Assembly (NCBI RefSeq): GCF_900112675.1
Contig: NZ_FOMQ01000007.1
Coordinates: forward strand, 162,750-226,749
Length of the DNA stretch: 64,000 bases
Source of the DNA: Paracidovorax konjaci
GTDB lineage: Bacteria > Pseudomonadota > Gammaproteobacteria > Burkholderiales > Burkholderiaceae_C
Direction of reading: 5' to 3'
The notes under the pieces: model-generated
Databases searched by the model: none
Seen by the model: the letters and a program-made list of their open reading frames with translations, nothing else
Told to the model about the DNA's origin: nothing
In this document: positions 4,043-40,697 of the stretch, in pieces
Numbering within the stretch: position 1 is the first letter of the stretch
Layout of the letters: every line of letters starts with the position of its first letter
Program-made: the position numbers and the translations under genes

Positions 4043-4106
4043 GAAGCAAAAGGGGCCGTATGCCGGCGGATTCATTGAATACTTTGCTATTGATAACATA
4101 GCAAAG
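4043..4106 (-). repeat. 65-bp repeat element copy A (reverse orientation) in the hslV–hslU spacer
   Basis: The reverse complement reads TTTGCTATGTTATCAATAGCAAAGTATTCAATGAATCCGCCGGCATACGGCCCCTTTTTGCTTC, the same module order as copies at 8716, 13940, 34796 and 40632. Confidence 0.8.
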
Positions 4107-4127
4107 CACGGCAGGGGCGGACGGCGG

Positions 4128-4676
4128 TCAGAGCGTCTCGACGGTGTGGTGCATGTTGGTGTAGATGCACAGCTCGCCCGCAATGGCCAGCGACTTGCGC
4201 ACGATCTCCTCGGCCGGCAGCTCGGTGTGGTTCAGCAGCGCCTTGGCGGCCGAATGCGCATAGGCACCGCCCGAACCGATGGCCACGATGCCCTGCTCGG
4301 GCTCCAGCACGTCGCCGTTGCCCGTGATGATCAGCGAGGCGCTGGTGTCGGCCACGGCCAGCATGGCCTCCAGGCGGCGCAGCACCCGGTCGGTACGCCA
4401 GTCCTTGGTGAGCTCGATGGCGGCGCGGGTCAGGTGGCCTCCGTGCTTTTCGAGCTTGGCCTCGAAGCGCTCGAACAGCGTGAACGCATCGGCCGTGGCG
4501 CCCGCGAAGCCCGCGAGCACCTTGCCGTGGTGGAGCTTGCGCACCTTGCGCGCCGAGCCCTTGACGACGATGTTGCCGAGGGTGACCTGCCCGTCGCCGC
4601 CGATGGCGACCTGGATGGTGCCGTCCGCGGCCTGCCGGCGGACGCTGAGGATGGTGGTGCCGTGAAACTGTTCCAT
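4128..4676 (-). CDS. hslV: ATP-dependent protease subunit HslV
   Basis: [14 protein letters not shown]...[22 protein letters not shown] is the canonical HslV N-terminus (Thr active site after Met removal). Start trimmed to 4676. Confidence 0.9.
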
Positions 4677-4775
4677 AGCGTCCGGACTTGGGGGTGGACG
4701 CCGGGATTGCAACAGGGCGGCGGAGCACCGTACCCGCCAGGGACGCCGCCCTGCCGGAACGGCCGGAACGCCGGT

Positions 4776-6569
4776 TCAGTTCTTGCGCGGAACGATGCGC
4801 GCGTGCTCGTTGACGCCGATCACGTTGAAGAACACCGCCACCAGGCGCTGCACCTGCGTGAAATGCACCACGTTGCCCAGGGCCTGCTGCGCGGCAGCCC
4901 AGTTCAGCACCGAGCCGGCGGCCGCGAAATCGACGCGCGCCAGCCGGTCGCAGCCAATGGCGAAAGGCACGCCGCTGCGCAGGTGCGCCTCCAGGGGCTC
5001 CAGCATGGGCGTGGCGTCTCCCTCGATGTGCCCGGACAGCAGCGCGGCCGGCACGGCGGGCTCCAGGCCGCCCGACTGCGAGGCCGGATCGCCGAAGCCC
5101 GAGACGAAGGAATCGACCTCGAAGCCGGGCGCCGCGGCGGCGGCTTCGGGCACACCGCCCCCGTCATCCGAGTAGCTGCACCGCGGAGGCGCCCAGGACG
5201 GCGGCGACACCTCGTAGGTGACGCAGTAGTCCAGCGCGACCAGTTCGAATTCGTCGGGCTTGCCCATGAGCCGCAGCGCCGCCATGCGCAGGCGCCACCA
5301 TTCGGGCGAGATGTCCCGGTCGCCCGACGGGGTGCGCGCCTCCAGCAGGCTCACGAGCGCATCCACGCCCTTGAACACGATGGTGTCGGTGCGGTCCGCC
5401 CATTGGCCGAAAAGCTGCGCCAGGCCCGGCACGGCCGGCTCCTCGATGGTCATGAGGCGCGCCCAGGCGAAGGTCCAGGGCGGGGCGGAACGCGCGATGG
5501 CCGCCTGCAGCGCCGCCACCGACTGGGTGGCGAGCACGGACGGCGCGTTCCACAGGAATTCGCGCTGCGGTGCGGCCAGCGCGGCGGCGCTCGCTGCGGC
5601 CGGCACCTGCAGGCCGAGCAGTTCGGGCATGGAGAACCACAGTGGGGCCGAGCGGCCGAACCGCGCCGCGAAATCGATCGCGAGCGCGTCGAAGCGCTCG
5701 TGCTCCCCGATGGCGCGGTAGAGGTCGAACAGCGCCATCCAGAACTCGGCCTGGCGCTCCAGGTCGTCGCCCTCGTGCTGGGAGAGCACTTCGAGCAGGC
5801 CCGATTCAGCCCCGGCATAGTCGCCGTTCGCGAAGCGGATGGCGGCCTCTTCCAGGTCGGGCTCGTGGACGAAGGGCGGCGGCTCGGGTGCCACGAACAC
5901 GGGAGGGACCGGGTCGGCGCGCTCGGTGAGCATCGGCGGCACGAGCGGCCGGGCGCCCTCGGGCTGGCCGGCGCCGGGCAGCGGCAGGGGCACCGTGGCG
6001 GCCGCGAAGTCCGCGGCCGGCGGCAGGCTGTCGCCGGAGAAAAGGGGGTGGACGCCCGCGCCGGCCGCCAGCCCCGCCGGCAGGCTGGCCGGCGCGGTGG
6101 GGGCGAACGCGCGCGCATGCGCGTCGGTGGTGGAATCGGGGGCGCCGAGCGATGCCGGCTCGGTGGGCGCCAGCGCGCCGGGCGCCGTGGCGCCGGTGGC
6201 GGGCTGCTTGCTCTTCCACCACTGCTGGGACATCTGCGCCTCGATCTCGTCGATCTTCTTGAGCGTGACCGCCCGGTCGTCCGGGGAGGTCATGCTGGTA
6301 TGGAAGAACGAGGGGCGCGCGGTCTGGTCGTCCGAGCGCTGGCCGTGCAGCGCCTCGCGCTGGCGCAGCTTGCGCAACTGATCGAATTCGCGGCGCCGCA
6401 CGAAATCGTTGCGGCGCTTGCGCTCGATCATCTCCTTGAGCATCTGCTTGCTGTACTGGCTCTCGCGGTCCTCGTTGATCGAGTCGAGTTCGTTCCAGTT
6501 GACGGTGGGGTTGCGCACGAAGCGCACCACCTTGGACAGCAGGCCGCGGGAGGATTCTTCCTTGCTCAT
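4776..6569 (-). CDS. Hypothetical protein (597 aa) with a C-terminal STAS-like domain
   Basis: Long ORF with a charged N-terminus, a Pro/Ala-rich low-complexity linker, a helical-repeat-like middle, and a C-terminal segment (...PFAIGCDRLARVDFAAAGSVLNWAAAQQALGNVVHFTQVQRL...) that resembles STAS/anti-sigma-antagonist folds. No confident family assignment by eye. Confidence 0.55.
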   Translation of the reverse strand: MSKEESSRGLLSKVVRFVRNPTVNWNELDSINEDRESQYSKQMLKEMIERKRRNDFVRRREFDQLRKLRQREALHGQRSDDQTARPSFFHTSMTSPDDRAVTLKKIDEIEAQMSQQWWKSKQPATGATAPGALAPTEPASLGAPDSTTDAHARAFAPTAPASLPAGLAAGAGVHPLFSGDSLPPAADFAAATVPLPLPGAGQPEGARPLVPPMLTERADPVPPVFVAPEPPPFVHEPDLEEAAIRFANGDYAGAESGLLEVLSQHEGDDLERQAEFWMALFDLYRAIGEHERFDALAIDFAARFGRSAPLWFSMPELLGLQVPAAASAAALAAPQREFLWNAPSVLATQSVAALQAAIARSAPPWTFAWARLMTIEEPAVPGLAQLFGQWADRTDTIVFKGVDALVSLLEARTPSGDRDISPEWWRLRMAALRLMGKPDEFELVALDYCVTYEVSPPSWAPPRCSYSDDGGGVPEAAAAAPGFEVDSFVSGFGDPASQSGGLEPAVPAALLSGHIEGDATPMLEPLEAHLRSGVPFAIGCDRLARVDFAAAGSVLNWAAAQQALGNVVHFTQVQRLVAVFFNVIGVNEHARIVPRKN

Positions 6570-6674
6570 GGGTCGTCGTGGCTCAGGGGCAGGCGCCGCG
6601 GCGCATGGGTCGGAGGAAAGGGACGGACGGGCGGGAAGCGATGCCGTGCGGAGCGGGCGGCAGGCGGGGGCCTG

Positions 6675-7172
6675 TCAGTCCCCGAACATCTTCTGCTTCA
6701 GCTCGCGGCGCTGCTGTGCCTCCAGGGACAGGGTGGCCGTGGGGCGGGCCAGCAGGCGGCCCACGCCGATGGGTTCGCCGGTTTCGTCGCAGTAGCCGTA
6801 GTCGCCCGCATCGATGCGGCCGATGGACTGCTCGATCTTCTTGAGCAGCTTGCGCTCGCGGTCGCGGGTGCGCAGCTCCAGGGCGTGCTCTTCCTCGATG
6901 GTGGCGCGGTCGGCGGGATCGGGCACCACGACGGTGTCCTCACGCAGGTGCTCGGTGGTCTCGCCGGCGTTGTTGTGCATGTCCTGCTTGAGCATGACGA
7001 GCTTGTGCCGGAAGAAGGCCAGCTGCTTCTCGTTCATGTATTCGCTGTCGGGCATGGAAAGCACTTCGGCGTCGGAGAGTTCCTCCGCCGACTTGGTCTT
7101 CCAGTTGTTGGCCAGCTTCGGGTCTTTCTTGGCGGCCGCGACGGGCGATTGCGCTTGCAGGGTCGTAGGCAT
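6675..7172 (-). CDS. dksA: DksA/TraR family RNA polymerase-binding regulator that lacks the canonical Cys4 zinc finger (DksA2-like)
   Basis: 165 aa with a coiled-coil and the DksA C-terminal region ...DAGDYGYCDETGEPIGVGRLLARPTATLSLEAQ.... Only one of the four canonical cysteines is present: the first CxxC is C-D-E-T and the second is replaced by T-L-S. Confidence 0.85.
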   Translation of the reverse strand: MPTTLQAQSPVAAAKKDPKLANNWKTKSAEELSDAEVLSMPDSEYMNEKQLAFFRHKLVMLKQDMHNNAGETTEHLREDTVVVPDPADRATIEEEHALELRTRDRERKLLKKIEQSIGRIDAGDYGYCDETGEPIGVGRLLARPTATLSLEAQQRRELKQKMFGD

Positions 7173-7477
7173 GATGTGTATTGGCTGGCTGTGCCGGCGA
7201 GGGTGGCCGGCTGTGGTGCCGTGGATGGTACGGTCAATTGCTCCAAACGGGAAGAAGGCCGACTCCTATGCCCTCCCCCTTTTTCGCAGAGCGGGTTCGC
7301 AGGCGCGGAGTACCGCATTCCGCCCGGGCATCCGGCGGTCCGGGAAACGGACGGGGTGGCTTCTCTCCCCCGGTTTTTGCCGGGGCGCGATTGTATACAT
7401 CCACCCCCGCTGCGCGCGGCCGTCCCGATAGAAGTAGTGGTTATCCTACAAGCCCGGTCCGGCCACCGCCGCAGCCC

Positions 7478-8572
7478 TCAGGCCAGGCACTGTTCCAGCC
7501 CCTGCTGGAAGATGTCCTGCGGCAGGTCGATGCCGATGAAGACCATCTTGCTCTGGCGGCGCTCGCCCTCGGCCCACTGCGGGCCCAGGTCGCTGCCCAT
7601 GAGCTGGTGCACGCCCTGGAAGATCACCTTGCGCTCGGTGCCCTGCATGTTCAGCACGCCCTTGTAGCGCAGCATGCGGGGGCCGTAGATGTTGACGATG
7701 GCGCCCAGGAAATCCTCCAGCTTGGCGGGATCGAACGGGCGGTCGGCGCGGTAGACGAAGCTCTTTACATCGTCGTCGTGGTGATGGTGGTGGCCGTGGC
7801 TGCCGTGCTGGTGCGAAGGATGGCTGCACTGCTCGCCGTGCGCATGGTCGTGGTCGTGGTCATGGCCGTGCGCATGGTCACCATGGTCATGGTCATGGTC
7901 ATGGTGGCCGCCCTCTTCCTTGAGGAAGTCGGGATCGATGTCGAGCTTGGCGTTCAGGTTGAAGCCCCGCAGGTCCAGCACCTCGGAGATCGGCACTTCG
8001 CCGAAGTGCACGGCCTTCATCGGCGCGCGCGGGTTCATGTGCTTGAGGCGGTGGATCAGCGCGTCGGTCTCCTGCGCGGTCACCAGGTCGGTCTTGGACA
8101 GGAAGATCTGGTCCGCGAAGCCCACCTGGCGGCGCGCTTCCTGGCGGTCGTTCAGCTGCTGCGCCGCGTGCTTGGCGTCCACGAGCGTGATGATGGAGTC
8201 GATGAGGTAGGTCTCGGCGATCTCCTCGTCCATGAAGAAGGTCTGCGCGACCGGGCCCGGATCGGCCAGGCCCGTGGTCTCGATGACGATGCGGTCGAAC
8301 TCCAGCAGGCCCTTGCGGCGCTTGGCGGCCAGCAGCTGCAGGGTCTCGCGCAGGTCTTCGCGGATGGTGCAGCAGATGCAGCCGTTGCTCATCTGGACGA
8401 TCTGCTCCTTGGAATCGGTCACCAGGATGTCGTTGTCGATATTCTCTTCGCCGAATTCGTTCTCGATGACGGCGATCTTCTGGCCGTGCGCCTCGGTGAG
8501 CACGCGCTTGAGCAGCGTGGTCTTGCCCGAGCCCAGGAAGCCCGTGAGGATGGTGGTGGGAATGAGGGACAT
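7478..8572 (-). CDS. COG0523-family metal-chaperone GTPase (CobW/YjiA/ZigA-like) with a His-rich insert
   Basis: Walker A GFLGSGKTT, the COG0523 signature GCICCT, and a His/Asp-rich stretch HHDHDHDHGDHAHGHDHDHDHAHGEQCSHPSHQHGSHGHHHHH. Confidence 0.85.
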   Translation of the reverse strand: MSLIPTTILTGFLGSGKTTLLKRVLTEAHGQKIAVIENEFGEENIDNDILVTDSKEQIVQMSNGCICCTIREDLRETLQLLAAKRRKGLLEFDRIVIETTGLADPGPVAQTFFMDEEIAETYLIDSIITLVDAKHAAQQLNDRQEARRQVGFADQIFLSKTDLVTAQETDALIHRLKHMNPRAPMKAVHFGEVPISEVLDLRGFNLNAKLDIDPDFLKEEGGHHDHDHDHGDHAHGHDHDHDHAHGEQCSHPSHQHGSHGHHHHHDDDVKSFVYRADRPFDPAKLEDFLGAIVNIYGPRMLRYKGVLNMQGTERKVIFQGVHQLMGSDLGPQWAEGERRQSKMVFIGIDLPQDIFQQGLEQCLA

Positions 8573-8715
8573 GGGGGTCTTTCAGGAAGGAAACATCGCC
8601 GCGGCGCGGGACCGGAGAGCGGCGCGGGCCGGGCTCCGGGGAGGTCTCTTCAAAGTTTAGCGATCGTGTCAAGCCCCGCGCCGGGTGCGGAATTCGGGCG
8701 CCCGGCGGGTTTTGG

Positions 8716-8780
8716 TTTGCTATTAAATATATAGCAAACTATTGAATGGATACGGCGGCATGGAGCATATTTCATGCAGC
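8716..8780 (+). repeat. 65-bp repeat element copy B (forward orientation) between rlmI and the COG0523 gene
   Basis: TTTGCTATTAAATATATAGCAAACTATTGAATGGATACGGCGGCATGGAGCATATTTCATGCAGC. The left module is a perfect 8-bp inverted repeat, TTTGCTAT-N7-ATAGCAAA. Confidence 0.8.
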
Positions 8781-8818
8781 ACATCACTTCCAGCCCCGGC
8801 GTGGCCCGCCGGGGCGCC

Positions 8819-10003
8819 TCACAGCTTGCGCATCACGGCCAGGCCCTTGAGGTACTCCCCTTCGGGGAATTCCAGCGTCATCGGGTGGTCGGGCGCGCCG
8901 CCCAGGCGTTCGAGGATGTAGCCGTCCACGTTCGCGTCCGCGCCGGCCGAGGCCACGATCTTGTGGAACAGGTCGGCACCGATGCCGCCCGAGCACGAGA
9001 AGGTGTAGAGCAGCCCGCCGGGCGCCAGCAGTTGCAGCCCCAGGCGGTTGATGTCCTTGTAGGCGCGTGCGGCGCGCTCGGCATGGGCGGCCGTGGGCGC
9101 GAACTTCGGCGGATCGAGCACGATGGCATCGAAGGTGCGGCCCTCCTGCAGGAAGCGCCGCAGGGAGGCGTTCACATCGGCGTCGAGGAATTCCGTGCGG
9201 CCGGCATCGAAGCCGTTGAGCGCCACATGGGAGCGGGCGCGCTCCAGCGCGGGGCCCGAGGAATCGATCGAGGTGACGTGCTCCGCCCCGCCCGCGAGCG
9301 CGGCCACGGTGAAGCCGCCCGTGTAGCAGTAGCAATTGAGCACGCGCTGCGCGCCCAGGCGGCGCACGGCCTCGGAGAAGCGGTGGCGGCTGTCGCGCTG
9401 GTCGAGGTAGAAGCCGGTCTTGTGGCCCTCCGCGATGCTGAGCGTCAGGCGCCAGCCGTGCTCGCGGATCGAGAGTTCCGTCGCGCCCTCGCCGCGCAGC
9501 CAGCCGGTGGCGGGCTCCAGGCCCTCCAGCTGGCGCACGTTGGCGTCGGAGCGCTCGTAGAGCTTGTCGAGGCCAGTGGACTGCAGCAGCGCATCGGCGA
9601 TGGCGGATTTCCAGCGCTCGGTGCCGGCGCTGGTGAACTGCGCCACCAGGGTGTCGCCGTAGCGGTCCACGATGAGGCCGGGCAGGCCGTCGGATTCGCC
9701 GTGCACGAGGCGCACGCCGTCGCTGTCGATGGCAAAGCGCTCCCGGGCGCGCAGGGCCCGGGCGACGGCGGCCGCGAAGAAGGCCGCGTCGATGCGCTGG
9801 GCCTCGTCGAAGCTCCAGGCGCGCGCGCGGATGCGCGAGGCCGGGCTGAACGCCGCCCAGGCGAGGAACCGTCCCTCGGCGGACTCCACGCGCACGGTCT
9901 CGCCGCTGTCGCCGCCGCCCTTGGCGATGGCCGATTCGAAGATCCAGGGGTGGCGGCGCAGGAGGGAGCGCTCCTTGCCGGGGCGCAGGCGGATGGTTTT
10001 CAT
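8819..10003 (-). CDS. rlmI: 23S rRNA (cytosine1962-C5)-methyltransferase RlmI (YccW family, class I SAM-dependent)
   Basis: 394 aa, MKTIRLRPGKERSLLRRHPWIFESAI... (PUA-like N-terminus) followed by a SAM-methyltransferase fold (VLNCYCYTGGFTVAAL...DPPKF). Confidence 0.85.
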   Translation of the reverse strand: MKTIRLRPGKERSLLRRHPWIFESAIAKGGGDSGETVRVESAEGRFLAWAAFSPASRIRARAWSFDEAQRIDAAFFAAAVARALRARERFAIDSDGVRLVHGESDGLPGLIVDRYGDTLVAQFTSAGTERWKSAIADALLQSTGLDKLYERSDANVRQLEGLEPATGWLRGEGATELSIREHGWRLTLSIAEGHKTGFYLDQRDSRHRFSEAVRRLGAQRVLNCYCYTGGFTVAALAGGAEHVTSIDSSGPALERARSHVALNGFDAGRTEFLDADVNASLRRFLQEGRTFDAIVLDPPKFAPTAAHAERAARAYKDINRLGLQLLAPGGLLYTFSCSGGIGADLFHKIVASAGADANVDGYILERLGGAPDHPMTLEFPEGEYLKGLAVMRKL

Positions 10004-10161
10004 GGGCGCGTATTGTCCCGGAGCCCGCGGCCGGCCGCCCCCGGCCGATGCGCACGGATTTGAGGATTGTTGAGAAAGTTCCGGCCCGGTTTCCCTAGGA
10101 TTCGCCCCAGCCGGTCCGGAAGGTCCGCGCCCAGACCAACAACTCTCAGAGGGGAATCCAC

Positions 10162-11772
10162 ATGCATTACATCCATCGGCTCAAGGTGTCCACGCGGCTC
10201 GGCTGGCTCCTGGCGGCCCTGTGCCTGCTGGCGGCGGGCGTCGGCGGCGCGGGTCTGCTCGGCATGGGCAACTCGAACGCCGGCCTGGTCACCGTCTACC
10301 GCGACCGCGTCGTGCCGCTGCAACAGATCAAGGTGGTGGCCGATGCCTACGCGGTGAACGTCGTGGACACGGCGCACAAGGTGCGCGACGGCGCCATGAC
10401 GCCGCAGCAGGGCCTCGACTCGGTCGCCGCGGCGCGCAAGGACATCCGCACCCAGTGGGACGCCTACCTGGCGACCGACCTGCACGCCGAGGAGCACCGC
10501 CTGCTGGCGGAGTTCCGGCCGCTGCAGGCGCGCGCCGATGCCGCCGTCCAGACCCTCGAAGCGCTGCTGCGCGCCCAGGACATCCCCGGCCTCACCGCCT
10601 TCGCCGCGCGCGAGATGTACCCGGCGCTCGATCCGCTGCAGGCGGTGCTGGCCAGCCTCACGCAGGTGCAGCTCGACACGGCGCGCAGCACGTATGAAGC
10701 CGCCGAGGCGGATTACCACGCCACCCGCCAGGGCGTGATCGCCGCGGTGCTGGCCGGCATGCTGGCCGCCATCGGCTTCGGCGCGCTGGTGGTGCGCGGC
10801 ATCCTGCGCGAACTGGGCGCCGAGCCGTCCATGGCGGCGGCGGTGGCGCGCAGCGTGGCGCAGGGCGACCTGACCGTCGCCATTCCGACGCGCGACGGCG
10901 ACGCGGCCAGCCTGATGGCGCAGCTGCGGCGCATGCGCGACCAGCTCGCGGCGATGGTGGCGGCGATCCACGAGAGCGCCGAGAGCGTGTCTTCGGCGGC
11001 GCTGCAGATCGCGCAGGGCAACAGCGACCTGTCGGCCCGCACCGAGGGCCAGGCCGGCGCCCTGCAGCAGACGGCGGCCTCGATGGAGCAACTGAACGGC
11101 ACGGTGCGCCAGAACGCGGGCAACGCCCAGGAGGCCGACCGCGTGGCACAGGCCGCCTCGCGCGTGGCGGCCCAGGGCGGCGCGGCGGTGGCCGAGGTGG
11201 TGCGCACCATGCAGGACATCAACGACAGCAGCCGGCGCATCGCGGACATCACCGGCATCATCGACACCATCGCCTTCCAGACGAACATCCTGGCGCTGAA
11301 TGCCGCGGTCGAAGCGGCGCGCGCCGGCGAGCAGGGCCGCGGCTTCGCGGTGGTGGCGGGCGAGGTGCGGCAGCTCGCCCAGCGCGCGGGCCAGGCGGCC
11401 GGCGAGATCAAGGGCCTGGTCACCGCCAGCATGGAACGCGTGAACGCAGGCACCGACCAGGTCGCCCGCGCCGGCCAGACCATGGAGAGCGTGGTGCGCT
11501 CCATCCACGGCCTCTCGCAACTGGTGGAGCAGATCACGGCCGCCAGCCAGGAACAGAGCCAGGGCGTGGACCAGATCAACGACGCGGTGACCGACATGGA
11601 CCGCTCGACCCAGCACAACGCCGCGCTGGTGGAAGAGATGGCCGCCGCGGCCGCCGCCCTGAGCCAGCGCGCCCGGGAGCTGGTGGGTGCCGTATCGACC
11701 TTCCGGCTGCCCGGCGAGGCGCTGCTGGCCGCGCCGGCGGCGGGCCCGCTGCCGCGGCTGCGGCACGGCTGA
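10162..11772 (+). CDS. Methyl-accepting chemotaxis protein
   Basis: N-terminal TM segment, periplasmic four-helix-bundle-like sensor, second TM, HAMP domain, and the highly conserved signalling domain ...[34 protein letters not shown].... Confidence 0.9.
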
Positions 11773-12857: not shown

Positions 12858-13559
12858 TCAGCGCAGGCGCGAGAGGGCCGCGCTGGCCAGCTCGGACATG
12901 CGCACGAGGAAATCGGTGCCCATGGTCGCGTCGAAACGCTTTTCGTCGGGCGAGCCCAGTACCAGCAGTCCGAAGGCCGGCGCATCGCCGTCGAGCGCGC
13001 CTTCGCGCAGCGGCAGCAGTGCCACCGACTGCACCTGGCCGGCGTCCGGCAGCCAGCCCGCGGGCTCGAAGCCGAGGTTGGGGCCGCAGAACGGCTGGGT
13101 GAGCGACGTGGCGAAGGAGCGCGCATCGGCGCTCGCGCCCTGGGCGAACGGCGCCCCGGCGTACTGCGGCGACAGGTCCCAGAGGCGCAGCGCGGCCTGC
13201 GGCACGTCGAAGAGGCGGCGGATGCCCTGCTCCACGCGGTGGGGCAGCATGGCCGGATCGGTGGCCTGGGCGAGTTCGCGCGTCCAGTGGTGGATCTTCT
13301 GCGCGATGGCGGTGTTCTCGTGGCTGTGGCGCACCATTTCCATGATGCGCTGCTCCAGCCCCTTGATCTTCTCGCGCAGCATCTCGGCCTGGCGCTCCTG
13401 CAGGCTCACGGCGCGCTGGCCGTGCGGGCTGGTCAGGGTCACGCCGGTCAGCAGCTCGGCATGGCGCTCGAAGAAGCCCGGGGTGTTGGCGAGGAATTCG
13501 GCGATGTCGTCCTCGGTGATGGGCGGCACGGCGTGGGCGGGGGAATGCGGTGTGGTCAT
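12858..13559 (-). CDS. DUF484 family protein (YigA-like)
   Basis: 233 aa. Lies between dapF and xerC, as in the enterobacterial dapF–yigA–xerC arrangement. Confidence 0.75.
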
Positions 13560-14434
13560 GGTGCGTCGGGAATGTCGATCTGGCCTTCGAAGACGGTGGT
13601 GGCCGGCCCGGTCATGAAGACCGGATCGGCGGGGTCCCCGCTCCAGGCGATGGTGAGCAGGCCGCCGCGCGTCTGCACGTCCACGCGCGCATCGAGCAGC
13701 CCCAGGCGGATGCCGGCGGCCACGGCCGCGCAGGCGCCCGTGCCGCAGGCGAGCGTCTCGCCCGCGCCGCGCTCGTACACGCGCAGCCGCACGTGGCCGC
13801 GGTCCACGACCTGCAGGTAGCCGGCGTTCACGCGCTGCGGAAACCGCGGGTGGCCCTCGATGGCGGGGCCGGTGCGCGCGACGGGCGCGGTGTCCACGTC
13901 GTCCACGAGCTGCACGGCGTGCGGATTGCCCATGGAGACGATTGCTATGAATATAGGAGCAAACTCTTCAATGGAACCGGCGGCAAGCGGCCATTTTTGC
14001 CCTGAACCCTGGGCCACCGGCTCCAGGCCCGAGGCATCGAAGGGCAGGTCCTCGGGCGCGAAGCGCGGGCGCCCCATGTCCACGGTGACGCGGCCGTCCT
14101 CCGTGAGGCGGGGGGCGATCACGCCGGCCAGCGTCTGCACGCGGATGGTGTCCTTGGCGGTGAGGCCCTTGTCGCGCACGTAGCGCGCGAAGCACCGCGC
14201 GCCGTTGCCGCACTGCTCCACCTCGCCGCCGTCGGCGTTGTGGATCACGTATTCGAAATCGATGCCTTCGGTGGGCGATGGCCGCACGGTCAGGATCTGG
14301 TCGGCGCCGACGCCGAAGTGGCGGTCGGCCAGGAAGCGGTACTGCGCGGGCGTGAGGCCCAGGCGGTGCTGCGTTTCGTCGAGCACGACGAAATCGTTGC
14401 CCGCGCCCTGCATCTTGGTGAAGCGGATCTGCAT
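13556..14434 (-). CDS. dapF: Diaminopimelate epimerase DapF, carrying an in-frame repeat-element insertion
   Basis: [20 protein letters not shown]...CGNGARC...[10 protein letters not shown] includes both catalytic Cys motifs. Start trimmed to 14434. Its stop overlaps the DUF484 start (ATGA). Confidence 0.9.
13940..14003 (+). repeat. Repeat element copy C (diverged), lying inside the dapF reading frame
   Basis: GATTGCTATGAATATAGGAGCAAACTCTTCAATGGAACCGGCGGCAAGCGGCCATTTTTGCCC aligns along its whole length with copies B and D. On the minus strand it is translated as ...[20 protein letters not shown]... immediately before the conserved VSMGNPH motif. Confidence 0.75.
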
Positions 14435-15322: not shown

Positions 15323-16693
15323 TCAGAGCCGAAAGGCGAAGCCCGCGGCCCCGGCGGCCAGGATCACCGGGATGACCCCTGCCCGGTAGCGCATCAGCGC
15401 GACCGCCGCCGCCAGGCCGATCAGCACCGAGGGCCCATCGATGCCGCCGGACAGCCCGCCCGGCCAGAAGACGTGCCAGGCGAAGAACACGGCCAGGTTC
15501 ACGATCACGCCGACCACCGCCGCGGTGATGCCCGTCAGGGGCGCCGTGAACCGAAGGTTGCCGTGCGTGGATTCGATGAACGGGCCGCCCAGCAGGATGA
15601 AGACGAACGACGGCAGGAAGGTGAAGAAGGTCACCACCACCGCCGCGGCCGCCCCGGCGAGCATCGGCGCGTCGGGGCCGAAGAGCGCCCGCGTCCAGCC
15701 GCCGACGAAGGCGACGAACGACACCACCATGATGAGCGGCCCCGGCGTGGTCTCGCCCAGCGCCAGGCCATCGATCATCTGGGCCGGCGTGATCCAGTGG
15801 AAATGCTCGACGGCGCCCTGGTAGACATACGGCAGCACCGCATAGGCGCCCCCGAAGGTCATCAACGCCGCCTTGGTGAAGAACCATCCCATCTGCACGA
15901 GGACCGAGTTCCAGCCGAAAGCCGCGCACAGGCCTCCCATGGCGAGGAGCCAGACCCCCAGCCCGGCCACGAGCACATTGCGCAGCCGCCGCCACGAGAA
16001 CTGCGCATGGGGCGGCGCGGGCGTGTCGTCGTCGATCAGCGCGCTCCCGCCCGTCGCGGCCCGCCCCGCATGCCCTGCCGGCGCCGGGCCGGCCCGCGCT
16101 CCGAAGGCCTCGGGGCGCCACCGCCCCCCCGCATGGCCCAGCACGGCCGCGGCCACCACGATCGCCGGGAACGGCACGTCGAAAGCGAAGAGCGCCACGA
16201 AGGCGGCGACGGCGATCGCCGCCAGCCAGCCGTTGCGCAGCGACCGCGAGCCCACCCGCACGGCGGCTTGCGCCACCAGCGCCGTCACCGCCGGCTTGAT
16301 GCCGTAGAAGATGCCCGCCACCGCGGGCGTGCTGCCATGGGCCATGTACAGCCATCCCAGCGCCAGCATGATGAACAGCGACGGCAGCACGAAGAGCGCG
16401 CCCGCCAGGATCCCGCCCCAGGTGCGGTGCAGCAGCCAGCCGAGGTAGGTGGCGAGCTGCTGCGCCTCCGGCCCGGGCAGCAGCATGCAGTAGTTGAGGG
16501 CATGCAGGAACCGCCGCTCCGAAATCCAGCGGCGGCGCTCCACCAGTTCGTCGTGCATGAGCGCGATCTGGCCGGCCGGGCCGCCGAAGCCGATGAACCC
16601 GAGCTTCAGCCAGAAGCGCAGGGCTTCGGGCAGGGAGACGGAATGGGGGAGGGCGCGCGCCGGATCGGCGGCGGAGGGCGGCAAGGTGTCCAT
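15323..16693 (-). CDS. chrA: Chromate efflux transporter ChrA
   Basis: 456 aa, duplicated CHR domains (GFIGFGGPAGQIALMHDELVERRRWISERRF...). Polytopic membrane protein. Confidence 0.85.
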   Translation of the reverse strand: MDTLPPSAADPARALPHSVSLPEALRFWLKLGFIGFGGPAGQIALMHDELVERRRWISERRFLHALNYCMLLPGPEAQQLATYLGWLLHRTWGGILAGALFVLPSLFIMLALGWLYMAHGSTPAVAGIFYGIKPAVTALVAQAAVRVGSRSLRNGWLAAIAVAAFVALFAFDVPFPAIVVAAAVLGHAGGRWRPEAFGARAGPAPAGHAGRAATGGSALIDDDTPAPPHAQFSWRRLRNVLVAGLGVWLLAMGGLCAAFGWNSVLVQMGWFFTKAALMTFGGAYAVLPYVYQGAVEHFHWITPAQMIDGLALGETTPGPLIMVVSFVAFVGGWTRALFGPDAPMLAGAAAAVVVTFFTFLPSFVFILLGGPFIESTHGNLRFTAPLTGITAAVVGVIVNLAVFFAWHVFWPGGLSGGIDGPSVLIGLAAAVALMRYRAGVIPVILAAGAAGFAFRL

Positions 16694-16837
16694 GGAAACT
16701 CCGATGAGTCGCTCCAGCGCTTGGACGGGACACCGTCTACCCTCGCGGGACGGGAGGCTGTTTTCCCGGATAGGCGGATTCTAGTGCGCCCCGGCACGGC
16801 CTCACCAGCCCTCATCCCCCTTCCGGATGCCGCTGCC

Positions 16838-25127: not shown

Positions 25128-25474
25128 CCAAAGTGTGAAGCGCGCCGATAAGCCGGATTCTGTGCATGCGGTCGCCCGCATGTGACCGCCATTACTCTGG
25201 GCCGGGGGTCGCCCACCCGGCTCGATGCTACCTACCCGCCAGCTCCGCGGAACCACGTCAACGCTGGCCTACTTGGTATTGCTGCGCGTAGAGATTGCCC
25301 GTTTCACCCCGGCTGGTCTACCTTGCGGTACTCCCGCCGGACTCGTCTCTGTTGCTCTGATCCTCACCTCGCGGTGGACAGCCGTTAGCTGCTACGCCGT
25401 CCTGTGCAGTCCGGACGTTCCTCCAGTGCCTGGTTTCCCAGATCGCACCAGCGGCGGTCTGGCGCGCTTCACGG
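25128..25474 (-). ncRNA. rnpB: RNase P RNA (bacterial type A)
   Basis: Reverse complement contains GGAGGAACGTCCGGACTGCACAGG (P4 5' strand region, cf. GGAAAGTCCGGGCT), ...ACAGAATCCGGCTTATCGG... (P4 3' strand) and complementary P1 ends CGTGAAGCGCGCC / GGCGCGCTTCACA. Length is about 347 nt. Confidence 0.8.
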
Positions 25475-25954: not shown

Positions 25955-27736
25955 TCAGAAGGTTTCCCATTCGCCGTTGTCCTTGCTCGCCTGGCTGCTG
26001 GCCGCCGCCTTCGGTGCATTCGCAGAGGCGAGCGCGGGCCGCGGTGCTGCGGCAGGCCGCGGCAGCGGGGCCGGCGCGGGGCGCTTGCCCGCCTGCGCCG
26101 GGAGTGCCCGGGCCTGCGGCCGGGCAGCGCCGGGCACTGCCGCGGCAGGCGGCCGTGGCGCGGCGGGTGCCGCGTCGTCGATCTTGAACACGTCCACGGC
26201 CGCGACCAGTTGCTTGACCTGCAGGTTGAGGCTGTCGGCGGCGGCGGCAGACTCTTCCACCAGCGCGGCATTCTGCTGCGTGACCTGGTCGATCTGCATC
26301 ACCGCTTCATTGATCTGGCTGAGCCCGGAGGTCTGCTCCTGCGTGGCCGACGTGATCTCCTGGATCAGGTTGCTGACCCTGCGGACCTGCCCGACGATGT
26401 CTTCCATGGAAGTGCCCGCCGCATTCACGAGCTGGCCTCCGTTGGCCACCTTCTCCACGCTGTCGTGGATCAGCGTCTTGATTTCCTTGGCGGCTTCGGC
26501 GCTCTTCTGGGCCAGGCTGCGCACCTCGCTCGCCACCACCGCGAAGCCGCGGCCCTGCTCACCGGCGCGCGCGGCTTCGACCGCGGCGTTGAGCGCCAGG
26601 ATGTTGGTCTGGAACGCGATGCCATCGATCACGCCGATGATGTCGGCGATCTTCTGGGAGGATGTGTTGATCTCCCCCATCATCGACACGACCTGCCCGA
26701 CCACCTCGCCGCCCCTCTGGGCGGCCTGGCTCGCAGACTGGGCCAGCTCCGCCGCCTGCCTTGCCGTGTCGGCACTGCTCATCACCGTGCTGGTCAGCTC
26801 TTCCATCGATGCCGCGGTTTCCTCCAGGTTGCTGGCCTGCTCTTCGGTCCGCTGGGACAGGTCGGCATTGCCCGTGGCGATCTGGGTGGCGCCCACGGCG
26901 ATGTTGCCGCTGCTGCTGCGGACCGTCCCCACCACTTCGCGCAACGAGGCCTGCATCCTCTGCATCGCGGAAACCACGCTGCCGGGCTTCGCGCGCGACA
27001 CGTCGATCGGGTAGGTGAGGTCTCCGCGCGCGATGGCGCCGGCCACCAGCGCCACGTCCGCCGGCTCGCCGCCCAACTGGCCGGTGAGACCGCGCGTCAG
27101 CAGGGCCCCGATGGCCACGCCCAGGATCACGCCGCCGACCGTGAGGCTGATCAGGATCAGGCGCACCCGCTGGTAGATCACGCTCGTCTGGTCGTTCAGT
27201 TCCTTGGCGTTGAGCTTCTTGCGGTCGACCAATTGCCCCAGCAGCTCATCGGCCTTGTCCGCGATCTGCCGGACCTCGTTGATTTTCAGCATGGAAGCGC
27301 GCGTGTTCGACAGATCCTCGGTCTGCAGCAGCGCCAGGACCGACTGCAGGCCGGCGTCGTAGGCCTGCACGGCCTGCTGGGTCTCCAGGACGCGGGCCCT
27401 GCCTTCGTCGGTGACGAAGAAGTTCCCGGTCTTGGCCAACTCCTCGTGCATGGCCTTCAGGCGCATCTGCACCGAGGCGATGTGCGCGCGCCGCTCGTCC
27501 TGCGTGACGGCCAGCACCGCGCTGCGGATCGCCCGGCTGGCACCGATCAACTGGATGTTGGCCTCGGAGGCGTGCGACAGGCCCGCGATCTCGCGGTCAT
27601 ACATGAGGTCGGCAAGGTCGTTGATCTCGCTGGAACGCAGGATCCCGGCGGTTCCGATCAGGGCACCGATCGCCGCCACGGCCAGAAACCCGGCGATGAG
27701 CTTGGTGCCTACCTTCAGTCGTTTGAACCATTCCAT
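25955..27736 (-). CDS. Methyl-accepting chemotaxis protein
   Basis: [23 protein letters not shown]... (TM1), sensor domain, TM2, HAMP, conserved signalling domain [34 protein letters not shown], and a C-terminal Pro/Ala-rich tail. Confidence 0.88.
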
Positions 27737-29069: not shown

Positions 29070-30686
29070 TCACGACAACCGGTCCCACGCCAGCCCGAAA
29101 CGGCCCAGGTATTTGCGCAGGCGGTCCGCATCGTTGACGGCCGTGCGCTGCGCACGCGAGGCCTGGAACAGTTGCCGCCCCGCATCCGACAGGCTGCGCG
29201 ACTGCCGGCACACCCGCACCACGGCCGCGAGCTGCAGGCGATCGAACAGGTCCAGCGCGTCCATCTGCGCGGGCCCCAGCAGGGCTTCGAGTTCAGGCAG
29301 CCCGTCCGTGCCCGCGGAATGCGCCCCCTGCGGCGGCTGCGCCGGCTGCCACAGCCAACGCAGCCGGGCGATCTCGGCCTCCACCAGCGCGAGCCCGATG
29401 CGCCCGCCTTCGGCCAGGGTCGCCAGGCGCACCACACTCGCAGACAGGTCGCGGAAGTTGCCGGACCAGAGCGCTTCCGGCGACTGCGCATAGCGCAGGT
29501 AGCCCTGCCGGGCCTCGGCCGAAAAGCGCACGCTGCGGCCCAGTTCCTCGCCGGCCCGGGCCAGCAGGTGGTCCACGTTGGGTTCGATGTCTTCCGGCCG
29601 CTGCGCCAGCCCCGGCAACTGGTAGCTCCAGAGGTTGATGCGCGCGAACAGGTCTTCGCGGAAGCGGCCTTGCGCCACTTCCGCGCGCAGGTCGCGGTTG
29701 GTGCCGGCGATGAGCTGGAAATCGCTCTCCACCTCGCGGTCGCTGCCCATCGGATAGAAGCGCTTTTCCTCCACGGCCTTGAGCAGCATGGCCTGCTCGT
29801 CCAGGCCCAGTTCACCGATCTCGTCGAGGAACAGCACACCGCCGTGGGCCGAGCGCAGCAGGCCCGCCCGGTCGGCTGCTGCGCCGGTGAAGGCACCCTT
29901 GCGGTGGCCGAACAGCGTGGATGCGGCGCCATCGCCGCGCAGCGTGGCGCAGTTGACCTCGACGAACCCGCCCTCCACCTGGTGCCGGGATTTCTTCAGT
30001 TCGTACATGCGCCGCGCGAGGTGCGACTTGCCCGCACCCGTGGGACCGGTGAAGAGGATGGGCGCGCGCGATCGCACCGCCACGCGTTCCACCTCCTCGA
30101 TGAGCGCGTTGAACGCCGGGTTGCGCGTGGCGATGCCGCTTTTGAGAAAGTCCAGCGCATCGCGCTGCTCCGCCTGGAAGCGCTGGGCCAGCGCGTCGTA
30201 GCGGGACAGATCCAGGTCGATGAGCGCGTAGCTGCCCGGGTCGCCCTCGCGCTGGCGCCGGGGCGGCGCCGTCTGCGCGAGCACACCCGGGATGCGGCGC
30301 GATTCCACCAGCAGGAAAAGGCAGATCTGCGCCACGTGCGTGCCGGTGGTGATGTGCACCCAGTACTCCTCGCGCTCCATGCGGAAGCGATAGGCCTGCA
30401 CCCAGTCGTACAGCGCGCCGTACACCTCGCCGAAATCCCACGGATCGCCGATGTCCAGCGACACCAGGCGCACGTCGGTTTCCGGCGACACCGCAGCCAG
30501 GTCGGCCTTCACCTGCGCGGCCAGGGGCGCGTGCGCCGGTGTATGGAGCAGCTCCATCCGGCGCACGACCACGTCCTCGTGCTGGGCGAGCGACACCGTG
30601 GGCCGCCATTTCTCCCACCGACCGGCGCCCTTGCCTGCATCCAGTTGGGTGCCGATGAAGCCGATGACCACTTTGCTTTTTGCCAT
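29070..30686 (-). CDS. rtcR: Sigma-54-dependent transcriptional activator RtcR (CARF sensor domain, AAA+ domain, HTH)
   Basis: N-terminal RtcR/CARF-type domain (MAKSKVVIGFIGTQLDAGKG...), AAA+ sigma-54 activator core with the GAFTGA motif (GHRKGAFTGAAADRAGLL) and Walker A GPTGAGKSHLAR. Divergent from an rtcB/rtcA operon. Confidence 0.9.
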   Translation of the reverse strand: MAKSKVVIGFIGTQLDAGKGAGRWEKWRPTVSLAQHEDVVVRRMELLHTPAHAPLAAQVKADLAAVSPETDVRLVSLDIGDPWDFGEVYGALYDWVQAYRFRMEREEYWVHITTGTHVAQICLFLLVESRRIPGVLAQTAPPRRQREGDPGSYALIDLDLSRYDALAQRFQAEQRDALDFLKSGIATRNPAFNALIEEVERVAVRSRAPILFTGPTGAGKSHLARRMYELKKSRHQVEGGFVEVNCATLRGDGAASTLFGHRKGAFTGAAADRAGLLRSAHGGVLFLDEIGELGLDEQAMLLKAVEEKRFYPMGSDREVESDFQLIAGTNRDLRAEVAQGRFREDLFARINLWSYQLPGLAQRPEDIEPNVDHLLARAGEELGRSVRFSAEARQGYLRYAQSPEALWSGNFRDLSASVVRLATLAEGGRIGLALVEAEIARLRWLWQPAQPPQGAHSAGTDGLPELEALLGPAQMDALDLFDRLQLAAVVRVCRQSRSLSDAGRQLFQASRAQRTAVNDADRLRKYLGRFGLAWDRLS

Positions 30687-31007: not shown

Positions 31008-31110
31008 GCTCCGGTTCGATTCCGGGAAGGCCACTTCTGTAGCTCAGAGGTAGAGCAGCCTTGTGTCCCAAGGCCTGGCGCAGGTTCGACTCCTGCCGGA
31101 AAAACCGACC
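31008..31110 (+). ncRNA. tRNA-like structured RNA in the rtc operon leader (Y-RNA/YrlA-like candidate); not a canonical tRNA
   Basis: D-arm-like TAGCTCAGAGGTAGAGC; anticodon-arm-like GCCTT-GTGTCCC-AAGGC; T-arm-like GCAGG-TTCGACT-CCTGC. A second T-arm-like hairpin TCCGG-TTCGATT-CCGGG lies just upstream. No pairing 7-bp acceptor stem could be found. Confidence 0.45.
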
Positions 31111-34774: not shown

Positions 34775-34795
34775 ACGGAACGCCTTCCCAGACGT

Positions 34796-34859
34796 TCGCT
34801 ACATATTTAATAGCAAACTATTGAATGAATCCGGCGGCATGAGGCCATTTTTATGCAAC
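34796..34859 (+). repeat. Repeat element copy D (forward, left arm partly missing) between rtcB and rtcA
   Basis: GCTACATATTTAATAGCAAACTATTGAATGAATCCGGCGGCATGAGGCCATTTTTATGCAAC. Its terminal ATGCAAC is the first ATG of the rtcA ORF called in the ORF track (34853). Confidence 0.75.
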
Positions 34860-34903
34860 AACAAGAAGAATTCCCGCGATCGGCGCATCCGATCGCCCCG
34901 GAC

Positions 34904-36046: not shown

Positions 36047-36150
36047 CCATATGCGGACGGGTTCGAAGGAGTGGTCCAAAATGCCCCGTTCCCTTTTGTC
36101 CCTCCCCTGGCCCGGCCCTGCCGGAACCCCCTTCCCACCCTGGAGACGCC

Positions 36151-37408: not shown

Positions 37409-38188
37409 ATGGCATCCATGGCTTCTCACGCAGAAACACCCTCCTCCGTCGCGTTCAAGGTGCTCACCGTGAACGTGCACAAGGGCTTCACTTCCTTCAA
37501 CCGCCGTTTCATGCTCCACGAGCTGCGCGAAGCCGTGCGCGGCGTGGGGGCGGACCTCGTCTTCCTCCAGGAAGTGCTGGGCACGCACCAGCGCCACGCC
37601 AACCGCGTCGCCAACTTCCCGCAGGAGCCCCACTACGAATTCCTGGCCGACACGATCTGGGGCCAGTACGCCTACGGCCGCAACGCCGTGTACGACAGCG
37701 GCCACCACGGCAATGCGCTGCTCTCCAAGTTCCCCATCGTCCATTACGAGAACCACGACATCTCCGTGAGCGGCCCCGAGCGGCGGGGCATGCTGCACTG
37801 CGTGCTGCAGCCGCCCGGCCATGCGCGCCAGGTGCATGCGATCTGCGTGCATCTGGGCCTGCAGGAGGCGCACCGCCAGCGCCAGCTGCGGCGCGTGTGC
37901 GATCTGGTGGGCACCTTTCCGCCCGAAGACCCGGTGATCGTGGCGGGCGATTTCAACGACTGGCGCGGCCGTGCGCACGAGGTGCTGCGCAAGGGCGCGG
38001 GCCTGAACGAGGTGTTCGTGCATGCGGGCGGCCGGGCCGTGCGCACGTTCCCCGCCTCGATGCCGCTGCTGGCGCTCGACCGCATCTACGTGCGCAACGC
38101 GGCCGTGCATGCGCCGGTGGTGCTGCCGCGCAAGCCCTGGCACAAGCTGTCGGACCATGCGCCGCTGGCCGCGGAGATCGCGCTGTGA
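37409..38188 (+). CDS. Endonuclease/exonuclease/phosphatase (EEP) family protein, YbhP-like
   Basis: EEP motifs (VLTVNVHKG..., LVFLQEV..., GDFNDW..., SDHAPL). Its stop overlaps the clsB start. Confidence 0.8.
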
Positions 38189-39567
38189 GGCCGGTGCGCC
38201 GCTCCTCCCGGTGGGTGCCGGGCAACCGCTTCGATCTGCTGGAAAACGGCGAGGCGTTCTTCCCCCGCGTGTTCGAGGCGATCGCTGGCGCGCGGCGCGA
38301 GGTGCTGCTGGAGACCTTCATCCTGTTCGACGACAAGATTGGCCAGGGGCTGCACGCCGCGCTGCTGAAGGCCGCGCACAATGGTGCCGAGGTGCACGTG
38401 CTCGTGGACGGCTTCGGTTCGCCCGACCTCTCCGAATCCTTCATCGGCCCGCTGGTGGCGGCGGGCGTGCGCTTTCGCATCTTCGATCCGGGCGGCCTGC
38501 GCCTGTTCGGCCAGCGCCTGAACGTGCTGCGCCGCATGCACCGCAAGATCGTGGTGGTGGACGGCGAAGTCGGCTTCATCGGCGGCATCAACTACTCGGC
38601 CGACCACGTCGCGGATTTCGGGCCCGAGGCCAAGCAGGACTATTCCGTCGAAGTGCGCGGTCCCATAGTGGCGCAGATGCGCGCCTTCGCCCGCAGCGTG
38701 GTCGAGAAGGGCGACAAGGGCCGCCGCACGAACCCGCAGGCGACGACCACCGCCGAACCCGCGCCCGATGCGGCCGGGGCGCCGGCCCCTGATGCCGCGC
38801 AGGCCGGGGCGCCGCGGGCGGCGCGCCGCAAGTGGCCGTTCGGCGCGCGCGCCGCCGATGCGCAGCACCCTGCGGCCGGCCCGGCCGACGCCATCTTCGT
38901 CACGCGCGACAACCATGCGCACACCAACGACATCGAGCGCCACTACCGCGTGGCGCTGCGCGCGGCGCGCGAGCGCGTGGTGATCGCCAATGCGTATTTC
39001 TTCCCGGGCTACCGCTTCATCCGCGAGATGCGCCGCGCCGCGCGCCGCGGCGTCGAGGTGCGGCTGATCCTGCAGGGCCAGCCCGACATGCCGATCGTGC
39101 GCACGGCGGCCAGCATGCTCTACGACCACCTCATCCGCGGCGGCGTGCGCATCTACGAATACTGCGACCGCCCACTGCACGGCAAGGTGGCGCTGGTCGA
39201 CAGCGAATGGTCCACGGTGGGGTCGAGCAACCTCGACCCGCTCAGCCTGTCGCTGAACCTGGAGGCCAACGTGGTCATCCGCGACCGCGCGTTCAACGCC
39301 ACGCTGCACGAGCGCCTGTCGCACCTCATGGACAACAGCTGCCGGCAGGTCGAGCCCACCCCGCCCGGCCGCTGGGACGGGCTGCGCCTGCTGCGCAGCT
39401 ACTGCCTCTTCCACCTGATGCGCTGGTTCCCCGCCTGGGCGGGGTGGCTGCCGCGCCACGAGCCGGAAATCTCCCTGGTGCAGCCCGAGGCCGCCGCCAC
39501 CGCCGCGGCTGCCGGTGCGGCCCCCGTGCCCGGCAGCGACGGCGGCCGCTGGCCTTCTGCCACCTGA
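38185..39567 (+). CDS. clsB: Cardiolipin synthase ClsB (PLD superfamily, two HKD motifs)
   Basis: Strong colinearity with E. coli ClsB (...ILETFI..., [40 protein letters not shown]...). GTG start overlapping the upstream stop (GTGA). Confidence 0.85.
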
Positions 39568-39593
39568 GCCCCGCCACCGCACCGCCGCACCCC

Positions 39594-40676
39594 ATGTCCT
39601 CCGCCTCGCACGCCCCCGCCCTGCCCGACGAATCTGCCGGCCCGCAGGGCGACGGCACGCCCCCCAGCCGCTGGCAGCGGCTGCGCTCGCAGCGCTGGTG
39701 GCCCTGGGCCATGACGCTGGTCACCGGCGCCTTCGTGGTCTTCGTCGTCGGCCTGCTGGTGCGGCAGGCGCGCACCGTGGACTGGGGCGCCGTGTGGGAG
39801 GCCTTCCTCGCGCTGCCCCCGGCCACGCTGGCCGTGGGCGGTGCGCTGGCGCTCGCGAGCCACGGGCTCTACAGCACCTTCGACCTCTTCGGCCGGCATT
39901 TCACGCGGCACGGCCTGTCCGTGGGGCGCACGGTGGGCATCACGCTCATCGCCTATCCGTTCACGCTGAACCTCGGTTCGATCATCGGCGGAGTGAGCGT
40001 GCGCTACCGCCTCTATTCACGCCAGGGCGTGTCCGTCGGCGCGATCGGGCAGGTGATCGGGCAAAGCATCGTCACCAACTGGCTGGGCTACTTCGTGCTC
40101 GCGGGCGCGGTGTTCTGGGTCTGGTCGCCACGGCTGCCGGAGGGCTGGCACGTGGGCCCCGGCGAGCTGCGCTGGATCGGCACCGCGCTGGCGGCCATCA
40201 CGGTGGCGTACGTCGCCGCCTGCGCGGTCCGGCGCGGCAGGCCCCTGGCCTGGCGGGGGCACGACTTTCCGCTGCCGGGCTGGCGCGTGGCGCTGCTGCA
40301 GGTGGCCGTGTCGTCCGTGAACTGGATGGTGATGGGGGCTGCCGTGTGGGCCCTCACGGGCTACCAGCCGCCCTATGCCGCCGCGCTGGCCACCGTGCTG
40401 CTGGGCGCCGTGGCCGGGCTGATCTCCCGCATCCCGGCGGGCCTGGGCGTGCTGGAGGCCGTGGGCACCGCCGTGCTGTCGGCCTACATGCCCGCCTCCC
40501 AGGCGCTGGCGGCGGTGCTGGCCTACCGCGCCCTCTACTTCTTCGCGCCGCTGGTGCTGGCGGCGCTGGCCTTCGGCGCGGTCGAATGGGCCGGCCGCGG
40601 CGCGCCGGCCCCGGAAACGGACGCCCACAAGGAATCCGATGAAAATCAGCCCCATGCCGCCGGATCCATTCAATAG
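39594..40676 (+). CDS. YbhN-family membrane protein (lysylphosphatidylglycerol-synthase-like TM region, UPF0104)
   Basis: Polytopic membrane protein directly after clsB, as in the E. coli ybhP–clsB–ybhN operon. The last ~15 codons and the stop codon lie inside repeat copy E. Confidence 0.8.
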   Translation: MSSASHAPALPDESAGPQGDGTPPSRWQRLRSQRWWPWAMTLVTGAFVVFVVGLLVRQARTVDWGAVWEAFLALPPATLAVGGALALASHGLYSTFDLFGRHFTRHGLSVGRTVGITLIAYPFTLNLGSIIGGVSVRYRLYSRQGVSVGAIGQVIGQSIVTNWLGYFVLAGAVFWVWSPRLPEGWHVGPGELRWIGTALAAITVAYVAACAVRRGRPLAWRGHDFPLPGWRVALLQVAVSSVNWMVMGAAVWALTGYQPPYAAALATVLLGAVAGLISRIPAGLGVLEAVGTAVLSAYMPASQALAAVLAYRALYFFAPLVLAALAFGAVEWAGRGAPAPETDAHKESDENQPHAAGSIQ

Positions 40677-40697
40677 TTTGCTATAAATAATAGCAAA
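40632..40697 (-). repeat. Repeat element copy E (reverse orientation) overlapping the 3' end of the ybhN-like gene
   Basis: The reverse complement reads TTTGCTATTATTTATAGCAAACTATTGAATGGATCCGGCGGCATGGGGCTGATTTTCATCGGATTC. On the plus strand it encodes ...KESDENQPHAAGSIQ-stop. Confidence 0.8.

Follow-up and report, generated by a model that had tools for sequence, protein, structure and literature searches.

Repetitive extragenic palindromic (REP) sequences and REPINs, which are mobilised by RAYT Y1 transposases in gamma- and beta-proteobacteria, are short non-coding repeats built around an imperfect hairpin-forming palindrome. They are found in intercistronic spacers and at the 3' ends of core genes, have neither terminal inverted repeats (TIRs) nor target-site duplications (TSDs), follow a lineage-specific consensus and are retained for a long time at orthologous positions. 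In these respects they resemble a repeat element of about 65 bp present in five copies in a 64,000-nt stretch of the Paracidovorax konjaci genome (assembly GCF_900112675.1, contig NZ_FOMQ01000007.1, positions 162,750 to 226,749; hereafter the window). The element differs from REP sequences, which are about 20-40 nt long, in its 40-nt non-palindromic tail, in the lack of a conserved GTAG/GTGG head and in being AT-rich in a GC-rich genome. Furthermore, its copies are singletons and not inverted doublets, and one of them is located in coding sequence.

Other small bacterial repeats share some of these features. As in the Rickettsia palindromic elements (RPEs), one copy lies in frame within the essential enzyme DapF, in a surface-variable segment, and is conserved across species, the other copies being intergenic. 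However, RPEs are 100-150 bp long, largely palindromic throughout and add 30-50 residues, whereas the element is palindromic at one end only, leaves DapF at 292 aa and has one of its five copies wholly within a gene. No Rfam or other database match indicated homology to the RPE families. Correia/NEMIS elements and other bacterial MITEs (miniature inverted-repeat transposable elements) are also small dispersed repeats affecting neighbouring gene ends and transcript context, but the 26-bp TIRs, TA duplication and defined promoter and integration host factor (IHF) sites of Correia elements are all missing here. A subterminal hairpin without TIRs or TSD is shared with IS200/IS605-type ends and with palindrome-associated derivatives of these (PATEs), and by analogy would fit single-strand, hairpin-guided mobilisation. 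PATEs have hairpins at both ends and a fixed 4-5-nt target, unlike the element with its single hairpin. Neither the sequence of the element nor such a repeat in Acidovorax or Paracidovorax was found in the literature, and permissive Rfam scans of two copies returned only noise (E > 0.6). The family of about 65 bp is apparently undescribed, in agreement with an earlier, preliminary description of the window.

Detection and anatomy of the repeat

A degenerate core pattern with 21 specified bases, AGCAAANTNTTNAATGNANNCGNCGGCA, gave exactly five matches in the 64-kb window and 0 matches in 100 dinucleotide shuffles of it; the pattern was built from the same five copies and is hence not independent evidence. 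A repeat search without the pattern also recovered the family in the window (repeats D6, I3 and I5). In addition, a scan of one genome per species with the core resulted in at least one further locus, a non-orthologous sixth copy in P. anthurii. Together, the pattern-free recovery and the P. anthurii match provide independent support for the family. With an nhmmer profile, each window copy was found at E = 1e-19 to 1e-21 and no sixth copy was observed within the 64 kb. The mean column identity was 69% for the five copies aligned with their flanks. The P. anthurii locus (L001) contained two extra non-orthologous copies, one near-consensus and one degenerate, adjoining hydrolase, metY-like and aroC genes; the family is thus dispersed beyond the window. 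The two copies are 2.8 kb apart and inverted, and flank the hydrolase and metY-like genes with no transposase between them or elsewhere in L001. All window copies are singletons without inverted doublets. The element was confirmed as a genuine dispersed repeat with unrelated flanks, occurring in both orientations at functionally unrelated housekeeping loci, as had been proposed, and not as a regulatory site common to them. The five copies are as follows.

Copy 1, 4041-4111, minus strand: core match 4061-4088; hairpin 4083-4105 (CTTTGCTAT-N7-ATAGCAAAG), with the core toward lower coordinates.
Copy 2, 8712-8783, plus strand: core match 8733-8760; perfect hairpin 8716-8738.
Copy 3, 13936-14008, plus strand: core match 13958-13985; within dapF (13556-14434, minus strand), antisense and translated in frame.
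Copy 4, 34790-34860, plus strand: core match 34812-34839; hairpin 34795-34817 with two mismatches.
Copy 5, 40632-40702, minus strand: core match 40655-40682; hairpin 40677-40697 (TTTGCTAT-AAATA-ATAGCAAA).

The element consists of three parts. The first is a hairpin, G/C-TTTGCTAT, a 5-7-nt AT-rich loop and ATAGCAAA-C/G; it is followed by the core CTATTSAATGRATCCGGCGGCATG and then by RGGCC, a T-run and usually GC. This amounts to a total of about 65 nt, with a 9-bp-stem hairpin at one end and a non-palindromic tail of about 40 nt, and a G+C content of roughly 40% in a genome of 70% G+C. A 42-nt consensus given in the preliminary description fitted only copy 4 within three mismatches. The perfect 8-bp inverted repeat with a 7-nt spacer, described there for the whole family, was found in copies 1 and 2; in copy 5 the palindrome is perfect with a spacer of 5 nt, in copy 4 it has two mismatches and in the dapF copy it is eroded. 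Stem pairing was retained in 87% of cells over 16 copies from five genomes, and the outermost pair covaries as GC, CG or AU. The loop sequences vary among copies and the stem is kept. Folding z-scores of the copies were down to -3.7. A second small stem, GCATG...CATGC, was present in only two of the five copies. The flanks on the hairpin side were not conserved, no conserved flanking tetranucleotide was seen and the copies have no conserved GTAG head.

The size of the element, its preference for intergenic sites and its several copies scattered in both orientations are what would be expected of a classical Correia/NEMIS-like MITE, that is, a deletion derivative of an insertion sequence with TIRs, inserted with a TSD, and this resemblance had been suggested earlier. 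It did not hold. Alignments of 5 and then 17 copies showed that the ends are not mutually complementary, with the hairpin, present at one end, as the sole inverted repeat, and six independent copies had no direct repeat consistently beside them. Furthermore, occupied sites were not longer than empty ones (see below), no insertion polymorphism was seen, the plasmid search gave no match and the phage search only noise (E ~ 0.5). A MITE origin is therefore very improbable and largely refuted. Scans of viral contigs with the element likewise resulted in nothing, and a scan of JGI metagenomes in only a chance 21-mer without hairpin in a contig of 58% G+C. A protein search with the concatenated element-encoded peptides gave no new candidate loci.

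Gene contexts were assigned by Pfam or orthologue annotation, and the positions, contexts and orientations previously reported for the five copies were all recovered. Copy 1 takes up most of the 96-nt hslV-hslU spacer, is co-directional with transcription and stops 9 nt short of the hslU ATG (4031). Copy 2, antisense to transcription, is in the interval from the 3' end of an RlmI-like methyltransferase gene (8819-10003, minus strand) to the start of the COG0523/CobW gene (7478-8572, minus strand), 144 nt upstream of the latter. Copy 4 is co-directional with transcription in the 78-nt gap from the rtcB stop (34774) to an ATG at 34853, and its GAGG and T-run occupy the position of the ribosome-binding site of the next open reading frame (ORF). 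At copy 5, the ybhN-like gene (39594-40676, plus strand) reads the core as ...NQPHAAGSIQ*, and the element gives the YbhN/LPG_synthase_TM protein its last 11 codons and TAG stop (40674-40676). The ORF at the right end of copy 4 (34853-34900) starts like rlaP (compare 4559-5395 in the NCPPB 2350 locus L009 and 4777-5631 in the P. valerianellae locus L012). In NCPPB 2350 and P. valerianellae rlaP is located between rtcB and rtcA, and it is missing from P. konjaci and NCPPB 4044. These sequences suggest that a 5' remnant of rlaP is joined to rtcA in the window, with rtcA itself probably starting at the ATG near 34901.

Two copies are forward and three reverse with respect to transcription, and this mixed orientation towards the flanking genes argues against an oriented cis-regulatory role. 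An operator or promoter common to a regulon, in which the palindrome would be bound by a transcription factor, could account for the perfect palindrome and for those copies that are located just upstream of starts (hslU and rtcA, and at a greater distance cobW). However, the genes beside the copies are unrelated in function, one copy lies within dapF and another at a 3' end, the 40-nt non-palindromic tail is conserved together with the palindrome, no shared -35/-10 motif was found and the same genes occur without the element in P. citrulli and in two other loci (L005 and L014). Such a role is hardly plausible. No shared sigma70-like promoter or intrinsic terminator was found among the copies. 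Two further candidates were rejected from reading the sequence only: the spacing does not fit a sigma54 -24/-12 site, and an IHF-like core, ATTCAATAGTTTG, differs from WATCAANNNNTTR by a single base but is not kept in copies with TTCAATG.

Distribution among relatives and divergence of the copies

Orthologous 20-kb loci were obtained via DapF and YbhN homologues, and up to ~42 kb per genome was compared. All five window sites were occupied in Acidovorax sp. NCPPB 4044, as were all four covered sites in NCPPB 2350 (sites 2-5; site 1 was outside the locus) and both covered sites in P. anthurii (sites 2-3; site 1 was outside the locus and sites 4-5 were not covered). No copy was found in P. citrulli (L008) or in three other Comamonadaceae loci (L005, L013 and L014). 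Among P. konjaci, NCPPB 4044, NCPPB 2350 and P. anthurii, every window copy covered by the fetched loci had orthologues; the sites were thus colonised before P. konjaci and P. anthurii split. As no lineage-specific insertion was seen in the compared loci, there is no evidence of recent mobility.

P. valerianellae had a hairpin only, TTGCTACATATTTAATAGCAA, at site 5, and its site 4 was empty. Since the site-5 hairpin was already present there with site 4 empty, the sites were probably colonised at more than one time. The hairpin (L012 11144-11176) lies just downstream of ybhN and has a 12-13-bp stem; its central 21 nt are identical to the copy-4 hairpin of NCPPB 4044 and have one mismatch to that of P. 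konjaci. GGCC and an A/T-run occur, inverted, on either side, the core of the family is missing, and the structure could represent an earlier or a different version of the element. Site 5 of P. valerianellae was also considered as a full-length old copy and rejected, because the core alignment was equalled by 888 of 2000 shuffles and only the hairpin was significant.

The elements of NCPPB 4044 differ by about 6% from those of P. konjaci, compared to a third-codon divergence of 8.1% between the two genomes. The elements thus change at roughly the silent rate in this pair, which gives no evidence of strong recent constraint. Parallel G/C changes in the two genomes were considered as a sign of conversion, but a rough count was not beyond chance. 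The orthologous copies in NCPPB 2350 and P. anthurii were strongly diverged, with profile scores of 18-31 bits compared to 55-70 bits.

The rate comparisons among copies involve only 5-17 short sequences with a core of 25 nt. Within this limit, the P. konjaci paralogues had a mean core identity of 81%, with copies 2, 4 and 5 at 88-96%, and the near-consensus copy in P. anthurii L001 was 96% identical to copy 2 in the core. Core identity between P. konjaci and NCPPB 2350 orthologues at sites 2-5 was only 68, 80, 44 and 56%. The third-position branch lengths were equal, 10.6% for P. konjaci and 9.6% for NCPPB 2350 (outgroups L005 and L008). In NCPPB 2350, the copies at sites 4 and 5 are inverted and separated by 6.5 kb; at seven of 25 nt both carry the same derived base (P = 0.0006-0.002 by simulation, if the copies are independent). 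These are signs of non-independent evolution among copies. From the alignments, some copies appear to be held near the consensus or refreshed, and others to be overwritten or decaying. The two NCPPB 2350 copies (L009 4494-4565 and 11025-11096) have a common variant core, CAAnnTAGAAnnnACGnCGACnT, with seven shared differences from the P. konjaci consensus. Where P. konjaci has CGGC, every orthologue examined from NCPPB 2350 and P. anthurii has CGAC, as does the hslVU copy of NCPPB 4044. The variant core and CGAC could point to a second subfamily, to gene conversion or to a hotspot of mutation.

The dapF copy and the occupied spacers

The DapF protein of the window matches P. konjaci DapF at 100% identity. 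The copy within its gene is translated in frame, as had been noted by comparison with the Rickettsia elements, but it is not the insertion that it had been taken for. Compared to the ancestral sequence, 44 nt were replaced by 44 nt, and DapF is 292 aa long here as well as in Diaphorobacter, Simplicispira and other Acidovorax, and in all Comamonadaceae sampled. The ancestral segment ALDGQASAATLLVAV was changed to 15 element-encoded residues, which align with a variable region immediately preceding the MGNPH motif in solved DapF structures. The in-frame copy is conserved in four lineages. In all dapF copies the consensus CAATAG, which contains an in-frame TAG, is GAAGAG (the stop-removing CTCTTC). 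CTCTTC is common to the dapF copies of three lineages, and this indicates a single ancestral event followed by selection for an open frame.

Occupied intergenic sites did not exceed empty ones in length. The hslVU spacer was 96 nt when occupied and 114 nt (L005) or 87 nt (L014) when empty, and the spacer from rtcB to the next ATG was 78-79 nt when occupied and 99 nt when empty (P. valerianellae). At one dapF junction, AARTGGCCGCT was present in the ancestral gene in the place of the element's AAATGGCCCCAT, and the other junction has GC..TCGT. The empty dapF of L014 gave a weak profile match to the end of the element.

An explanation for these lengths could be a repeat independent of any transposase, which spreads and is homogenised by gene conversion or by microhomology-mediated replacement of same-length patches in spacers, pre-existing hairpins and even a coding loop. 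The exact 44-nt swap in dapF, the similarity of the ancestral sequence to the element end at its junctions, the unlengthened spacers and the seven derived bases shared by the two NCPPB 2350 copies would all be in favour. However, the support comes from only a few copies and a single significant pair, the anchors, at 10-25 bp, are short for RecA-dependent conversion, spacers change quickly in length in any case and the core similarity in P. valerianellae was not significant. This kind of spread is considered improbable. If true, it would explain the length-neutral dapF copy, the unlengthened sites, the lack of TIRs and TSDs and the higher similarity of paralogues than of orthologues.

Genomes without the element have unrelated GC-rich palindromes at the same spots in the hslV-hslU and rtcB-rlaP spacers (L005 19948-20063; L014 17061-17149; L012 4677-4777), for example GGCGCC-GC-GGCGCC and GCGCTT-N7-AAGCGC. 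A stem-loop as such would thus seem to be conserved at these two spacer positions. The element could accordingly be regarded as a functional host module under selection, for example an mRNA-stabilising or -processing stem-loop like REP hairpins or an AT-rich docking site for a nucleoid protein, with copies kept alike by one trans-acting partner. The outgroup palindromes look as if a hairpin were needed at these positions, the stem is conserved with a covarying outer pair, and all copies were retained in every one of the lineages examined. In addition, the P. konjaci paralogues and the non-orthologous P. anthurii copy are within 4-12% of one core consensus, compared to a third-codon species divergence of ~22%. 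On the other hand, the copies occur in both orientations to transcription, one is located in a coding loop, and the P. konjaci/NCPPB 4044 divergence is roughly neutral. The orthologues in NCPPB 2350 and P. anthurii have decayed heavily in score with the flanking genes kept, and neither an Rfam family nor a promoter or terminator signal was found. A host module is possible but unlikely.

Origin of the repeat, neighbouring features and significance

The best explanation, which is held with moderate confidence, is an old, non-autonomous REP/RPE-like dispersed repeat that is lineage-restricted, essentially immobile now and locally co-opted. The family would have reached spacers of the core genome, and a single coding loop, in the ancestor of the clade of P. 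konjaci, NCPPB 4044, P. anthurii and NCPPB 2350. Since then, the copies would have stayed at fixed positions, persisting because they were tolerated or locally useful. The element supplies the intercistronic hairpin in hslVU and rtcBA, where outgroups carry their GC-rich palindromes, as well as the ybhN stop codon, the rtcA translation-start context and 15 residues of a variable DapF beta-hairpin. The single hairpin and the lack of TIRs and TSDs suggest that an enzyme recognising the hairpin acted in trans, or that recombination was involved; spread may thus have been catalysed by, for example, an HUH/Y1-type transposase as for REP sequences and IS200/IS605 ends, or have occurred by microhomology-mediated recombination. 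Some copies may have been kept similar by gene conversion or constraint.

Several observations weigh against an old mobile repeat of this kind. No transposase was found in the window, in L001 or in any fetched orthologous locus, and neither a master copy nor an insertion polymorphic between close genomes was seen in the loci compared. Lineage-specific gain or loss was likewise not observed within the orthologous sequence compared, and mobility is deduced from dispersal only. Paralogues with 88-96% identity and orthologues with 44-80%, despite equal branches, are not predicted by a purely neutral selfish-relic model. Finally, replacement accounts for the unlengthened sites better than simple insertion does.

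The window is core chromosome and includes ftsL-rsmH, hslVU, dksA, cobW, dapF-xerC, the RNase P RNA gene, rtcR-rtcBA, fatty-acid oxidation genes and two-component systems. An Rfam scan at gathering thresholds identified only RNase P, chrB-b and a tRNA in it. The bacterial class A RNase P RNA (25133-25470, minus strand) was a full-length match with 200 bits. The chrB-b RNA motif (RF03086, 41.6 bits; 16714-16769, minus strand) lies just upstream of an ORF on the minus strand (15323-16693); in NCPPB 4044 the orthologue of this ORF is a chromate-transporter gene. A tRNA-Asp(GTC)-like gene (31033-31106, plus strand; Rfam 38 bits, also detected by ARAGORN) stands alone between rtcR (29070-30686, minus strand) and the Band_7/rtcB/rtcA operon, and may be either a true tRNA or a tRNA-like component of the RNA-repair operon. 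At the corresponding place P. valerianellae has a Ro60/TROVE gene. Three further repeats of 130-300 nt with 71-79% identity were found at 26203-26886, 43243-43926 and 11232-11485. Two of them overlap ORFs with methyl-accepting chemotaxis protein signalling domains, and they look like paralogous genes for such proteins and not mobile repeats.

The current understanding of bacterial repeats is not overturned by this family. For annotators, it is relevant that the element supplies the stop codon of ybhN and the start contexts of rtcA and hslU, and its copies are useful as markers of the P. konjaci/P. anthurii clade. With the dapF copy, a repeat is translated as part of an essential enzyme whose length is unchanged, which is rare outside Rickettsia. 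An apparently undescribed small-repeat family is added to the plant-pathogen genus Paracidovorax, and its fixed orthologous copies constitute a small natural experiment on the decay of repeats versus their kept similarity.

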